This document shows, one piece after another, positions 648 to 7,399 of a stretch of DNA of 22,008 bases (positions are counted from its first letter, which is position 1; every line of letters starts with the position of its first letter). The stretch comes from a virus. A program made the translations under genes and the position numbers. The notes beneath the pieces were generated by a model that had not been told where the DNA came from, did not search any database, and worked only from the letters and a program-made list of their open reading frames with translations. Location: UHGV virus genome UHGV-1547525. One strand, written 5' to 3'.

Positions 648-3600
648 TTAGCCACTTAATATTCCCCCATCACGTCGCATATTTAACAGATTGCCCTGCA
701 CCCGCTGATCAACCATCCCCATAAGTGCTTTTATTGCCTGAGGGCCAATCTCTCCATTCTGGCCGTCATTTTGAATAGTGATTTGGTATACAGGGGCATA
801 GGTAATATCTCCGCCTCCATTACCACTTTTACTATTAATAGCTCTGACACCAAGAGAACCATCGGAAGTTCGTGTTAATGGCATAATGGCTTCCGGTCCA
901 GCCTCACCAAAAACACCAGCCCCTTTTGCAAAAGCAAAAAATTGCGGGGAATCATAAATACCGTTCGAATACGTGCTCAATGACGGAGACTCATAAACAC
1001 CGCCCTTTGCATTCGGAATAAATTTACTAATAGCACTCCCGATAGTTCCTAAAATCCCCCCAGAAGAACTGTTACTAATGCTGTCGAAAATCCCAGTAAT
1101 TGAAGCCTTTAATGCCATTCGACTAAGATCCGAAATCACGGAAGTAGCGAAAGAACGAAAATTTACCTTGCCTGTCGTGACAAAATCACCCAGCGCATCG
1201 GTCATCCCATCAAACATCTGAGTCGTGGTTGATTTTATCTGCTCACTGATATCCTTAGTGTCATCCAGCCAGTTATTGAATCCCTGGGAGGCACCACTAA
1301 CCCAGTCTCCTGCCTGAATATCGAGCTGCTCGTTTTTCTGTCTGACAATTTCTTTTTCCCGTTCCAGAGCATCATTCAGAGCCTGCATTTTCTCTTGAAA
1401 AACATGATCTGACATTCCACGGGATTTATCTGCATAGTCACGTTCAAGTTGCAGACGCTGATTGTTATATCCATGTTCAATCCGCAGTAATTCCTGCTGG
1501 CGTTGCTGATTTTTATCGCCAACCCCATAACCAGCAATCTGAATATCATACCCCTGCTGACGATTATCAATCGAAGCCTGCAATGAATCACGCCATGCTG
1601 TTATTTCGGCGGATTCCTTGATTAGCCTGTTATTCTTTTCAATCGCAACATTTTTCTCCATCAACGCGGTTATTTCTTCCCGGTGTAAGAGAAGCGATTT
1701 CTGATCCTGGGTTAATTTCGATGATGGTCGTGACTCTAGGTCGGCAATCCGCTGACGCCACTTAACCAGTTCCTGTTCAGAGGAACTTAATTTAACGGTC
1801 AACTCAGCTTGTGAACTTAGTAACGCATTCTGTTGATTCAGATGATCAATCATTCGTTGGGCTGCATCATCAGAATAACCTTTCGCCTTTGGTTGCTTTG
1901 GATCTTTATAACGCTCATTTATTTGAGCGATAAGATTATTATATTCTTCCTTTGAATACTGATTCTTTAGCTTTTCCAGTTTTGCAAGTTCACTAGCTCT
2001 CTGCTGCTCCCGGGTCTGATATTGTTTTGAAAAGGCATCTGCTCTCTGTCTGAGTTCAATTCCTTCCTGTTGTCGCTTGTTGTAATCGTTTATTGATGAA
2101 TTTAGTACGTCCTGAGCAATTTTTTCTGCTTGAAGTACGCCCAATTGCTGCTTTAATCGTGCCAGCCTTTTATTTTGAGCTCCGCCATCTCCAATGCCAC
2201 CTAACCCGAAAACTCCGGGTCGGGTATTTTTTTCTATTTCATCAATTTGACGGAGAACATCTGAGATTTTTTGATCAAGGGAGGCCTCACGGCCAATATC
2301 CAGCATGGAATCCCATGCCCATTTTGCGGAGTCTGCGACAGCTTTCCATGCAGTCTCAAGATAACCAAGATTTTCTTTAATCTGGTTGGTGCGCTGGATC
2401 ATTGAGGATGAGTATTCTTCTGTCGCAATGCGGGCGGCCTCCTGCTGGTTCCCTTCATCCTGTAGTGCCTTAATCTGGTTATAAGTCGCAAGTGTCAGAA
2501 AATGGTACTGATCATTAAGTTTTGATATGGCACTGACAGGATCCTTTGCAATTTCATTGAAGTCATTAACCAGTTGTTCGGTTGATATTCCTGTTACTTC
2601 GCTCGTTTTTACTATCGCTGTCGTCACTTGCTCCAGCGAACTGCTCGCTACCTTTCCCGAACGCACAAGCTGATTTAATACTGCCGCCGCAGCACCAGTT
2701 GTCGAATCAGCCGCATTCCCGGCACGTTGAGCTATATCGCCCAATTGCCCGCTGGTTGTCCCCAACTGATTTCCGGTAAGAATAAGAGATTTATTAAATT
2801 CGTCCTGCTCCTGAGAGCCTTTATAGTAAGCCAGTCCTAAGACCCCAACGGCTGCTGCGGCCAGGGTAAAAGGATTAATTAATCCCAGCACATAAGAACC
2901 TACACCTTTGATCGCCGGGCCAATCCCACCGAACATATCTTTTAGCTGGCCGCCCTGCTGCATTAACACCATAAATGGCGACTGACCAGTGGACAACCCA
3001 ACAACAATATCCGTCATTTGTGCAGGCAACATGCGCATAGCAAAAGCCGTTTGTTTTGCCGACATTCCGGTTTTGCTTAATTGTGATTGAGTAACCTCAA
3101 GCTCACTCCGCATAGCACGAAGTTTTCCAGAAAGCTCCTCATACATTTCAGGAGAAAGCATCCCCTTAGCTTTTGCTTCATTGAGCTGTTTCTGTTGTTC
3201 TACCAGACGATTAAAAGCAGTTCCGACAGGATCAAGTTGAGCAATCAGACGTTGCAAAGCAACAACCTGTTCATCATGCGCTTTTGCTGCTTCTCGCTCT
3301 GCCTGAGCCTCTCCGGTAAGCTCTCGCCGTGTTTCCTGTATTTTTCGGCTATAATTCTCAAACTGAGAACCATTTATTTTCCCGGATGCAAACGCAGCAT
3401 TAAGTTCATCATGCTGTTGTTCAAGATTTCTTAGCGCCGCAGCCAGAGGGTCGATCTTGTCCAGCATTCTTTGAAAGGCCTGAGCCTGCGCTTCCTGCTG
3501 GGCGGCAGCAAGTTTTCCGGCCTTCTCGGCTTCTCTCTGCGCTTGCGCAACCCCGCTCAATTCCTCTGTGGTTTCATTAAGTTTACGGACAAGAAATTCA

Positions 3601-3881
3601 TATTCTTCTTTATCAATAAGCCCTTTATCGAAAAATTTCTTTAATTCAGAATAGCGTCGACCGACAGTATCAATTGCGGCACCAACTGGATCAATAGCTG
3701 CTTTTAATTTTGCGAGCGCGTTCTTCTCATCTTCTGTTGCCTTAGTCACTTTCCCTGCGCTATTTGCAGCAGTTTCCCCAGCCTGCGTCATTTTGACTAA
3801 TGAGGAGGTCAGATTGTCAGCATTATTTTTCGCTCCAGTGCTATCAATAATTATTGCGAGACGCGAGGTTTGCTCTGCCAT
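648..3881 (-). CDS. H: Tail tape measure protein (lambda gpH family)
   Basis: 1077-aa ORF. Internal [41 protein letters not shown] and C-terminal [13 protein letters not shown]...RRDGGILSG follow the lambda gpH pattern as I recall it. Long coiled-coil-rich body; lies directly upstream of M and L. Confidence 0.9.
3072..3695 (-). repeat. Three tandem ~55-80-residue protein repeats in the tape-measure N-terminal region
   Basis: Tape-measure residues ~63-270 contain three units sharing [IL]DP[VL]..A...L......L...F..G.I....Y......K...T..EL.G.AQA.REA.KA ([11 protein letters not shown]..., [11 protein letters not shown]..., [11 protein letters not shown]...). Confidence 0.5.
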
Positions 3882-4044: not shown

Positions 4045-4365
4045 CTACACACACTGCTCCTGAAAATACTGGTCATCCAGTGCAAAGATCACTGCTTCAA
4101 ATTCATCGCGCTCAATCAATACCGGATGAGTGGCTAAATATTCATTTATCTCTGTCAGAGATAAAGGCAAAGGCACCCCAGCCATTCCAGCATAACGTCG
4201 GGCACGGGATATTACCGAATAGGCGTACAACAACTCCTTAAGCACCGGGTCTATTTCTGGTTCCGGTATCGGTGGCAACCTGAGTTTTTCTCGCTTCCAT
4301 CTTGCCTTTTCCCCCCTTTCTCCCCCGAACTCCGATAACCACCGCTGGGCAGCTATGGCTTTTTT
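4045..4365 (-). CDS. T-like extension of the tail assembly chaperone, expressed as a G-T fusion by -1 frameshift
   Basis: The -1 frame is open without stops from the slippery site at 4359-4365 to a TAG at 4045-4047 (...KKAIAAQRWLSEFGGERGEKARWKREKLRLPPIPEPEIDPVLKELL...). The ORF track shows only the TTG-initiated 77-aa part (4045..4278). Position immediately before the tape measure matches the conserved G/G-T arrangement. Confidence 0.7.
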   Translation of the reverse strand, partial: KKAIAAQRWLSEFGGERGEKARWKREKLRLPPIPEPEIDPVLKELLYAYSVISRARRYAGMAGVPLPLSLTEINEYLATHPVLIERDEFEAVIFALDDQYFQEQCV

Positions 4366-4814
4366 ATCGTATCCTGCTTCTGCTGCTCTTTACCCTGGGC
4401 GATGCTGGCTGCTTCTGCAAGGATCTGCCAGTACAACTCTGGATTCTGCTTAAGCAGCGCGATCCCTCGTTCTGCCGTATATTCCAGTGCAACCTCAACA
4501 CCATTAACCAGTTCACCAACCCCTTTCCAGTCTTTCAGCAGATAACGAGCGGCATTATCAATGAGTAAATCATCAACAGAATCCACCTCGGAAACCTTTG
4601 AAATATCAAACTCCTTCGTTCCGACGTGCAAACTGGCATCCATTTTCTCAATGTGGCGACGGATTAATGCATTACGGGAGCGATACTGATCGTTATCGCT
4701 GCTTGCCACCAACAGTTTTAACCCGTCTACAGGTTTTAAGTCCTTCATTGGCGTAAACCAGCGTTCTCCACCAATGATAATTTTCTGATTAAGAATAAAC
4801 ATCCATAACCTCAT
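4353..4814 (-). CDS. Tail assembly chaperone (gpG-like)
   Basis: 153-aa acidic ORF ending ...DTIKKP* with the slippery heptamer in its last codons. ATG at 4814, or ATG at 4802 which has a better GAGG Shine-Dalgarno. Sits between the major tail protein and the tape measure. Confidence 0.75.
   Translation of the reverse strand: MRLWMFILNQKIIIGGERWFTPMKDLKPVDGLKLLVASSDNDQYRSRNALIRRHIEKMDASLHVGTKEFDISKVSEVDSVDDLLIDNAARYLLKDWKGVGELVNGVEVALEYTAERGIALLKQNPELYWQILAEAASIAQGKEQQKQDTIKKP
4359..4365 (-). promoter_or_regulatory. -1 programmed ribosomal frameshift slippery heptamer A-AAA-AAG
   Basis: Minus-strand sequence GAT ACG ATA AAA AAG CCA TAG: an X-XXY-YYZ heptamer two codons before the G stop, with the -1 frame continuing open into the T region. 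Confidence 0.7.
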
Positions 4815-4894
4815 TCAATGCGTCCCCCTGTAGGGCAGTACCACAGGAGGAATAACGGAAAATCAACTAATCGCCTCAGCACTGGCTTTTGCGA

Positions 4895-5824
4895 TCACGG
4901 CAGCCGGGGAATTTTTTTTCTGGTTATCGTAGGTGCTTCATCTGCTGCGGTAATGCTCAATTGAACCTGGATAATGTCGCTATTACCCCCATCAGGCCAT
5001 TCACCTGACACCTGAACCTTCGGGAAACTGAAAGTGTATGCCCCCTCTCCATTCGAAAGCGTGAAGCTGAACGGAACTGTTTCTCCAGTCAGTGTTTTAC
5101 TCCAGATTTCCCACGCGGCTTTAGACCATGAAAGCGTCACCGTACCGGACGGTGTAAAAGTAGTCGGAATATTTGCTCCTGCATAAGGCGAGCCAGTCCC
5201 GATACAACGCTGTGTCTGGAGTTTGTTATCGAACTGAATATCAAAACTGTCGATACAAAAACCGTTACCTCCGGCAACACCATTCAGGCTTACTGCTGAA
5301 ACCTCCTTAAACGAATAACGTAGCTTTCCTGCACTATCCACAGGTTCGCCTTTGATAAAATTCGTATCATCGGCCTTTGATTCCCAGTCCAGTCCGGCAA
5401 AGGTTACGGTCGCTGTAATATCGCCGTCGTTAGGGATCTGCATTTTCCATGAGCCAACCTGCGCTCCTCTGACGACAGAGGCAATTCCGACATCGGACGC
5501 ATAGGTCGCCAGAGAAAATGTTATTCGCTCATTCCCCATTGTCAGAGAATCGCCTGACCATTCCGCGCCGAAACAGGATGCAAGAAAATCATCATGTTGA
5601 CCCCAGCGAAATTTGGTACCAACATCACCGCCGACATCCACAGTGCCAGGCGTCGCCCCCTGAGCCATCCGGGAGCCACCAATCTCATTATTTTCGCCTT
5701 TATTCTGGGTGGGTTTTACTCCCCAGCTTGTGCGTTTTAATAAACTCCAGTCACCACTTGCTGGCGTAGTGCCTGCAACCGTCTCCCGGATAAATGCCGA
5801 GATAACCTTTGCACCTGAACTCAC
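4895..5824 (-). CDS. Major tail (tube) protein, putative
   Basis: 309-aa ORF, GTG start at 5824 preceded by AGGAGG at 5-6 nt spacing. Gly/Thr/Ser-rich composition. Assigned by synteny (immediately upstream of the G/G-T chaperone genes); not lambda gpV-like in sequence. Confidence 0.6.
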   Translation of the reverse strand: MSSGAKVISAFIRETVAGTTPASGDWSLLKRTSWGVKPTQNKGENNEIGGSRMAQGATPGTVDVGGDVGTKFRWGQHDDFLASCFGAEWSGDSLTMGNERITFSLATYASDVGIASVVRGAQVGSWKMQIPNDGDITATVTFAGLDWESKADDTNFIKGEPVDSAGKLRYSFKEVSAVSLNGVAGGNGFCIDSFDIQFDNKLQTQRCIGTGSPYAGANIPTTFTPSGTVTLSWSKAAWEIWSKTLTGETVPFSFTLSNGEGAYTFSFPKVQVSGEWPDGGNSDIIQVQLSITAADEAPTITRKKIPRLP

Positions 5825-6620: not shown

Positions 6621-7004
6621 TTACGCTCTCCTTAACTGGATAGAGTAAACTGATGCGGAAGGATCTACACTTGCTGTAATTACCTCGTATCGTTGTAACT
6701 GCCTTGATACAGGATCATAAATCTCAATAATATGGTCGACAGCTGGTTTATCCGTAACCTCGCATACCAGAGCGGTTAATTTAAGGTCACCATGCAAAAT
6801 ATTAATCCCATCAATTCTGCCCAGCTTATAACGTGTCAACACGCCTCGCCCGGTATAGATTGCGGTGGATTCGCCGCCAGTTTCCGTCACAGGATCCCAG
6901 TGCCGGTGCGTAACGTAAGAACCAGAAAAATCACTCACGGCGTCCGCTAAATCCTCATCAAAAGCAGCGGCAACCTCTGACTGAATCTCTTCACGAAGCC
7001 CCAT
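6621..7004 (-). CDS. Head-tail adaptor / head closure protein, putative
   Basis: 127-aa ORF; its ATG at 7004 overlaps the upstream stop (ATGA). Position between capsid and tail genes. Confidence 0.4.
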   Translation of the reverse strand: MGLREEIQSEVAAAFDEDLADAVSDFSGSYVTHRHWDPVTETGGESTAIYTGRGVLTRYKLGRIDGINILHGDLKLTALVCEVTDKPAVDHIIEIYDPVSRQLQRYEVITASVDPSASVYSIQLRRA

Positions 7005-7399
7005 TATCCCCCCCTCACAACCCTGACTTGTGAGCGACTAAGTCCGTACGGTTTCAGCAGTGCTATCGCAAGCTGTAAATCGGGTTCAAGCAATGCAGTG
7101 CTGTTTGCTGGCAACTCAGAAAATGATTTCGATACACTGACCCCGTCAGCCGACACGGCTTTACTGATAACAACGCCAGAATCATTTTTCTGCTGAAACA
7201 ACTTACCGAATGAGGCAATTCTGGCTGCATATGCTCCCGCAAGTTTTACCTCTTCCGGAATACGGGATGGGTTAATTTTCAGGTTGAAGCCATTAAGCCA
7301 GGCATTAGCCATTAAAACAGCTTTATTTTTAGCGTTCTCACTCGTCCAGGCGTTCCCAAACGCATTATCAACGTCATCACAGGTCACGTAAGTGATCAT
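7004..7399 (-). CDS. Head-tail connector / DNA-packaging (gp6-like) protein, putative
   Basis: 131-aa ORF with ATG at 7399 preceded by AGGAG. Position just downstream of the major capsid gene. Confidence 0.4.
   Translation of the reverse strand: MITYVTCDDVDNAFGNAWTSENAKNKAVLMANAWLNGFNLKINPSRIPEEVKLAGAYAARIASFGKLFQQKNDSGVVISKAVSADGVSVSKSFSELPANSTALLEPDLQLAIALLKPYGLSRSQVRVVRGG

Follow-up and report, generated by a model that had tools for sequence, protein, structure and literature searches.

The genes G and T, which are flanked by the tail tube and tape measure genes of the window (the whole stretch of viral DNA that was analyzed, 22,008 nt in length), are very probably expressed by a programmed -1 ribosomal frameshift. 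Judged by its sequence and its setting, the locus is the G/GT frameshift of a Rac-like E. coli siphovirus prophage. The initial annotation had assigned it to the tail-assembly-chaperone G/GT type, and this assignment is supported by the position of the locus, the slip site, its conservation, the switch of the codon phase from one frame to the other and a match of the G protein to PHROG 313. The mechanism itself is textbook knowledge; the new part is an unannotated case in the Rac-like prophage family.

Gene Order and Reading Frames at the G/T Overlap

In this part of the window, all genes are located on the minus strand. They follow each other in the order major head, head-tail adaptor, head closure, tail completion, tail terminator, tail tube, G, T, tape measure and minor tail. 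The coordinates of the features at the locus are given in Table 1.

Direct reading of the minus strand gives ...CAG GAT ACG ATA AAA AAG CCA TAG as the 3′ end of the G frame. The heptamer A AAA AAG at 4365..4359 lies in the X XXY YYZ phase of this frame, and the stop of G is the second codon after AAG. The initial annotation, which had placed an in-frame A-AAA-AAG two codons before the G stop, is thereby borne out. The T frame is closed upstream by a TAA codon (4392..4390) and opens at 4389, and the overlap of G and T comprises 11 codons. A slip yielding GT could only take place in the stretch 4389..4356, in which A AAA AAG is the sole heptamer of the X XXY YYZ type.

After the slip, the T frame runs from GCC (4359) to GTG (4050..4048) and is followed by a TAG codon at 4047..4045. 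Its translation reads AIAAQRWLSEFGGERGEKARWKREKLRLPPIPEPEID...DDQYFQEQCV, and the 104 codons agree with the open -1 frame of about this length, reaching to 4045, which had been claimed before. The junction of the two parts had been given as DTIKK/KAIAAQ. This contains one lysine too many: since a ribosome that has slipped on AAA-AAG reads GCC as its next codon, the junction is DTIKK-AIAAQ, and the fusion would read ...QDTIKK-AIAAQRWL... in this region.

Table 1. Features of the G/T locus and of the two neighboring tail genes in the window.
Feature	Position	Strand	Description
G ORF	4353..4802	-	Tail assembly chaperone, 'YdaY' of PGAP; ATG at 4802, TAG at 4355..4353, 149 aa
SD-like GAGG	4809..4812	-	Putative, from the sequence; 6 nt 5′ of ATG 4802
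Slippery heptamer A AAA AAG	4359..4365	-	In the G frame (ATA AAA AAG); proposed site of a -1 tandem tRNA-Lys slip
T extension, -1 frame	4045..4359	-	104 codons (AIAAQRWLSEFGGERGEK...QEQCV) and TAG at 4047..4045
GT fusion coding region	4045..4802	-	Proposed; 148 codons in frame 0 through AAG 4361..4359 and 104 codons in frame -1, 252 aa
Tail tube (major tail) gene	4895..5824	-	Directly upstream of G; 'phage tail tube protein' of PGAP; PHROG 290, E 6e-109
Tape measure protein gene	648..3881	-	Directly downstream of T; PHROG 24 'tail length tape measure protein', E 0; also PGAP

Start Codon of G

For G, three different start codons come into consideration. The ORF track begins at ATG 4814 (MRLW..., 153 aa), PGAP starts 'YdaY' at an internal ATG, which results in 119-120 aa, and the start that is conserved is ATG 4802 (MFILNQ...). 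The homologues of G begin with MFIL or MLII. In seven related loci, an in-frame stop codon TAG (ATGAGGTTATAGATG) follows the ATG which corresponds to 4814, and this codon is probably not the start of G. Since ATG 4802 is the conserved start and ATG 4814 is followed by an in-frame stop in the seven loci, G is probably 149 aa long and GT 252 aa. The G ORF of the initial annotation is real, but its length of 153 aa should probably be reduced to 149 aa.

Comparable Heptamers in the Window

The heptamer AAAAAAG occurs nine times on the minus strand of the 22-kb window. Furthermore, the 21 long ORFs of this strand contain 32 in-frame heptamers of the X XXY YYZ type, behind which the -1 frame is open over a median of 7 codons. 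Only two of the 32 are followed by more than 100 open -1 codons, namely A AAA AAG at 4365..4359 and GGGGGGA at 7013.

The latter (G-GGG-GGA, 7007..7013, minus strand) is in frame with the head-tail adaptor gene (7399..7004) and precedes the stop of this gene by two codons; behind it, 130 codons of the -1 frame are open. It was rejected as a second frameshift site. The stop codon of the head-tail adaptor gene overlaps the ATG of the next gene at 7004 (TAATG), and G-GGG-GGA represents the purine-rich RBS of this gene, which has its own start. As GGGGGGA at 7013 gives the same picture as the site in G, a heptamer followed by a long -1 ORF was not accepted as sufficient proof. In a tightly packed phage operon this combination proves nothing, and therefore the comparative evidence carries the case.

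Conservation of the Slip Site in Related Loci

Relatives of the locus were gathered from 80 viral contigs, 14 bacterial genome loci and several annotated records, with identities of G ranging from 51 to 100%. The slip site was compared in 53 distinct sequences derived from about 96 loci. In all 53 sequences either AAAAAAG or GGGAAAG is present at the same codon, with zero intermediates. Among the loci with an intact end of G, AAAAAAG is found in relatives down to 57% G identity, and GGGAAAG takes its place in three distant lineages, one from Raoultella (L091) and two from Pantoea (L093 and L096). The three X positions change jointly, including the silent third position of the preceding valine or isoleucine codon, and the A-AAG core is invariant. 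The synonymous positions within the heptamer are invariant as well, at a diversity of 0.3-0.5 in the neighboring third positions. The distance from the first nucleotide of the heptamer to the stop codon of G is 10, 28, 82 or 112 nt, and T is open for 102-119 codons throughout.

The same protein would also result if RNA polymerase slipped on the A6 tract, so that an A is deleted or duplicated in some of the transcripts. This way of changing the frame is used in some bacterial genes (PMC5009743), and a homopolymeric run of A's is indeed present. However, the run consists of six A's only. For the E. coli RNA polymerase to slip efficiently, about 8-9 A's or more in a row are required. In addition, the GGGAAAG site of the three lineages and of Acinetobacter phage TRS1 comprises a run of three G's and one of three A's, on which a transcript cannot realign; for tandem slippage, it is a classic site. 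The conserved X XXY YYZ phase and the A-AAG core matter to the ribosome and not to the polymerase. Slippage of the polymerase is considered very unlikely here, and a slip of the ribosome is the preferred reading.

The pattern of substitutions changes at the heptamer. Upstream of it, the most variable phase is position 3 of the G frame, with values of 0.28-0.45 versus 0.03-0.21 in the remaining phases. Downstream, already within the first 30 nt, the most variable phase is position 3 of the T frame (0.35-0.54). This switch is also seen in those relatives in which the G frame stays open for another 27-37 codons. From the codon pattern it appears that the T frame is under purifying selection at the protein level from the slip site onward.

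When the GT fusion was used as a query for tblastn, 47 phage records gave separate matches for G and for T in two different frames, the records including phages of Klebsiella, Erwinia, Pseudomonas and Acinetobacter. Some of the more distant homologues have an imperfect heptamer, like C GCA AAG TAA in Erwinia phage Gungnir39 (L100, about 1985-1995) and G GAA AAG in Pseudomonas phage Aurca01 (L098, about 1870-1880). The strict X XXY YYZ rule is, due to these two sites, not universal in the wider family. Their sequences suggest a slippage of a single tRNA on A-AAG or a near-cognate re-pairing in the P-site. Taken together, A AAA AAG, G GGA AAG, C GCA AAG and G GAA AAG point to a turnover of the slip site at one homologous codon around an invariant A-AAG. 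The family would be a clean natural example of the exchange of a slippery heptamer at a fixed codon.

A few protein database entries consist of G and T parts in one frame. In P0001 (E. coli NB16F79_39920, 240 aa) the G frame is joined to T via a short deletion just upstream of the heptamer, and in P0123 (101 aa) the first 27 residues of G are joined straight to the T residue 'LPEPEID'. These two are natural or assembly-derived in-frame fusions, and such alleles would yield a GT-like protein only. The fused proteins P0001 and P0002 (220-240 aa) were not taken as evidence for frameshifting, as they are products of deletions or indels and have no annotated slippage.

Absence of an Independent Start for T

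In the relatives, no ATG, GTG or TTG of the T frame is shared before codon 61, and no SD sequence was found at any candidate start. The first shared start is an ATG or GTG at codon 61. The TTG codon at 4278, with which the ORF track begins an ORF extending to 4045, is codon 30 of T. It occurs only in the closest relatives, is absent from all relatives below about 90% identity and has no SD sequence in front of it. The 28 residues of T between the slip site and TTG 4278 are 61-93% identical across the relatives, and the AIAAQRWLSEFGGER region of the T frame is located upstream of every candidate start. Because no start is shared, the residues upstream are conserved and the codon phase switches at the heptamer, T would be read from the slip site onward rather than from its own start codon. 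From the sequences we infer that T is made exclusively as the C-terminal portion of GT.

Alternatively, T could be an independent gene which is translated from TTG 4278 or from a later GTG or ATG, with the heptamer being incidental. Gene callers do call ORFs in the T frame, which measure 41 aa in PGAP and 61 aa in the record of phage SPF_0923 and range from 60 to 138 aa in the protein database, and AAAAAAG is common in the window. However, the called starts vary from record to record, which reflects an arbitrary choice of the start. The TTG is lost in relatives at or below 80% identity, the first common start at codon 61 likewise has no SD sequence, and the conserved residues before the TTG show the codon periodicity of the T frame. 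Moreover, the heptamer has either been retained or been exchanged in its entirety for a different slippery one. A gene T with its own start is accordingly given a very low probability, and the view of the initial annotation that the TTG ORF 4045..4278 is not an independent gene is supported. The frameshift remains the preferred origin of the T product.

A mini-ORF in the +1 frame, starting with ATG 4300 behind a G-rich stretch, was also looked at and rejected, as the ATG is not conserved (AAGTGG in relatives versus AGATGG in the window). In the T frame, the G-rich stretch codes for the conserved EFGGE.GEK.

Protein Families and Predicted Structure of G and T

G matches PHROG 313 'tail assembly chaperone' (258 positions) at positions 13-149 with an E-value of 4e-46. 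T shows a weak match to the same family at positions 174-246 (E 0.01) and a match to PHROG 1189 with an E-value of 1.4e-36. With the Pfam family PF23812 (Phage_TAC_18), the T of the window reaches 20.7 bits, which is under the gathering cut-off of 27 bits; 8 of 19 T homologues match this family, the best of them with an E-value of 9.4e-6. The NCBIfam profiles gave zero matches.

No sequence similarity to G or T of phage lambda was detectable, with a hhalign probability of 0.1% for both. Missing similarity of this kind is usual for this functionally defined class of chaperones. On the level of the structure, the predicted model of G has its best match in the whole PDB40 set with the tail assembly chaperone of HK97 (PDB 2ob9). 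The AF2 model of T has a pLDDT of 58.6 and is too poor to be used.

Proposed Mechanism and Search for Stimulatory Elements

According to the proposed mechanism, most of the ribosomes would read G to its stop codon and produce the chaperone of 149 aa. A minority would slip back by one nucleotide with two tRNA-Lys on A-AAA-AAG, which would re-pair with AAA-AAA. These ribosomes would then read GCC and continue over 104 codons to 4045, resulting in the GT protein of 252 aa. The peptide spanning the junction of GT would be DTIKKAIAAQRWLSE.

By analogy to lambda, G and the G part of GT would coat the tape measure protein, and the T part would recruit the tail tube protein. The presumed partners are, in lambda terms, gpV (tail tube) for the T domain and gpH (tape measure) for the G domain. 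A fixed low ratio of GT to G, set by the frequency of the slip, would be needed for the assembly of the tail, and neither of the two proteins would be part of the virion. We infer the slip itself, an efficiency of probably a few per cent and the binding partners from the sequence and from this analogy.

Stimulatory elements were searched for on both sides of the heptamer. A downstream stimulatory structure, which the initial annotation had named as something to look for, was found neither by folding and the alignment consensus nor by covariation and Rfam. The single-sequence fold of the downstream region 4365..4260 is unremarkable (z = -0.40), and a conserved structure is missing in 16 diverse relatives, for which the RNAalifold consensus amounts to -2.9 kcal/mol. 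For a local hairpin (AGCCAU.../...GUGGUU) no compensatory changes were seen, and in 9-14 of 15 sequences the inner stem of this hairpin is disrupted. A scan against Rfam gave zero matches at E <= 1. Upstream, the only SD-like motif is AGGA at a distance of 6 nt; a role as a stimulator is not supported, since it is explained by the codons for Gln/Lys and Asp/Glu and is lost in L092 and L096. As no stimulatory element was found, a low efficiency of the slip is to be expected.

In the literature that was searched, no proteomics, ribosome profiling or reporter data were found for this family, and no paper was found which ties ydaY, ynaA or ynaM to frameshifting.

Public Annotation and the Locus in E. 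coli K-12

Copies of the locus were found in 1075 of 5426 complete E. coli genomes and, in addition, in 10 phage records of GenBank. In the records that were inspected, G is annotated as 'protein YdaY', and T is either unannotated or present as a hypothetical protein of 41 aa or 61 aa. In the protein database, the T-frame ORFs of 60-138 aa are all named 'hypothetical'. A joined CDS is absent from the inspected RefSeq record (WI2) and from the 10 matched GenBank phage records. Likewise, no feature named 'tail assembly chaperone' was seen among the 30 E. coli matches listed or among the close phage matches of the tblastn search with the fusion.

In E. coli K-12 MG1655 (L102, NZ_OZ465113.1 3340687-3342793), the region 940-1260 of the locus contains the identical AAAAAAG in ydaY. 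The T frame of K-12 is identical to that of the window and intact, with 106 codons. It is located in an unannotated gap of about 470 nt between ydaY, which ends at 952 of L102, and ynaA, which starts at 1426. In K-12, ynaA is the remnant of the tape measure gene, and the Rac prophage is defective; ydaY is truncated at its N-terminus at the Rac deletion junction beside ynaK.

It is likely that a working recoding signal has stayed unannotated in roughly a fifth of the complete E. coli genomes, including that of K-12 MG1655. If the ydaY message is translated in K-12, the YdaY-T fusion would be a further protein made by frameshifting in this model organism. Once the site is recognized, the correct GT product of 252 aa can be annotated, the spurious small ORFs disappear, and the gap which K-12 shows between ydaY and ynaA is accounted for. 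The value lies mainly in the annotation. The understanding of frameshifting or of tail assembly is unchanged, and the case will be unsurprising to the specialist.

The A8 Tract of the Tail Tube Gene and the State of the Prophage

The tail tube gene directly upstream of G contains a tract of eight A's at 4912..4919 (minus strand) near its 3′ end. In 32 close relatives this tract is A9, and in slightly more distant ones it is A7GC, which keeps the same frame. The A9 and A7GC alleles encode the conserved C-terminus ...ITRKK(N/A)SPAAVIAKASAEAIS, which in the window would end at TGA 4865..4863. With A8, which is found in the window and in six other loci, the protein ends with ...ITRKKIPRLP*. PGAP labels the same allele as 'frameshifted' in NZ_LT838200. 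In the A8 allele, A-AAA-AAA is in frame, and a -1 slip of the ribosome or one A added by the RNA polymerase would restore the consensus C-terminus exactly. The A8 may be a sequencing error, a real mutation or an indel which is tolerated due to slippage.

The altered C-terminus of this neighboring gene raises the question whether the G/T site of this prophage could be an inert relic, i.e., an ancestral signal in a silent or defective tail operon from which no GT is made. Rac-type prophages are often defective, and the deletion in the G of K-12 would be in line with such a decay. However, the window has intact copies of G, T, the heptamer and the tape measure gene, which are identical or nearly identical to those of phages that are inducible or have been isolated (Salmonella phage SPF_0923 and the vB_EcoS series), and the entire head-to-tail module is present with open ORFs. 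Besides, decay would bear on the activity in this host and not on what the element is. An inert relic is regarded as improbable to a high degree.

Comparison With Known Frameshift Systems

The heptamer A AAA AAG is also used in the -1 direction by dnaX of E. coli (gamma/tau), where it is read by the single tRNA-Lys of this species (PMC5009743). The present locus differs from dnaX in that it has neither a conserved downstream structure nor a match in Rfam, and its AGGA at 6 nt upstream is not conserved. In dnaX, an upstream SD-like stimulator at a distance of about 10 nt and a strong downstream hairpin are present, and the shift takes place at about 50%.

An annotated precedent is a distant homologue in Acinetobacter phage vB_AbaS_TRS1 (NC_031098), in which TRS1_18/TRS1_19 is annotated as a joined CDS with ribosomal slippage. 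The order of the genes is the same, the T parts are homologous with 38.8% identity over residues 170-249 of the fusion, and the slip position is homologous, with a gtGGGAAAGtc context as in Pantoea L096. In contrast to the locus of the window, the heptamer of TRS1 is G GGA AAG, and the G stop is located 85 nt past the site instead of 10 nt. Furthermore, a similarity of the G parts was not detected by tblastn, and TRS1 belongs to another host and another phage lineage.

The tail assembly chaperone of HK97 belongs to the same functional class and uses the same strategy of expression. Its fold is reportedly the 'spiral' TAC fold of Pell et al. 2013 (PDB 2ob9). A conserved tail assembly chaperone G/GT frameshift of long-tailed phages is said to have been described by Xu, Hendrix & Duda 2004, and the -1 frameshift between G and G-T of lambda reportedly by Levin, Hendrix & Casjens 1993 and by Xu, Hendrix & Duda 2004, 2013 and 2014. 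Frameshifts of the G/GT type have been confirmed experimentally in lambda, P2, L5, TM4, phiC31, HK022 and HK97 (PMC5313236). The sequence features of this class are found at the present locus as well: two overlapping ORFs between the tube and tape measure genes, a slippery heptamer in frame, a -1 ORF without its own start, a conserved site and selection on the T frame.

In lambda, the binding partner of the G domain is the tape measure protein and that of the T domain is the tail tube protein, and the ratio of G to GT, which is 30:1, is required for the assembly of the tail (PMC5009743). The low frequency of shifting that is expected for the present locus fits this ratio of about 30:1. The locus resembles that of lambda in its slot between the tail tube and tape measure genes and in its short chaperone ORF with a slip site near the end, which is followed by a -1 extension of about 100 codons without a start. 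No stimulatory RNA structure was detected at the present locus, which is a further likeness to lambda. The lambda heptamer G GGA AAG also occurs in the relatives L091, L093 and L096. Unlike in lambda, the heptamer of the window is A AAA AAG, the stop of G follows one codon past the shifted pair instead of five, and T has 104 codons compared to 144 codons of the annotated T ORF of lambda. Based on the sequence comparison, the locus seems to work like G/GT of lambda while standing outside the gpG and gpT sequence families of this phage.
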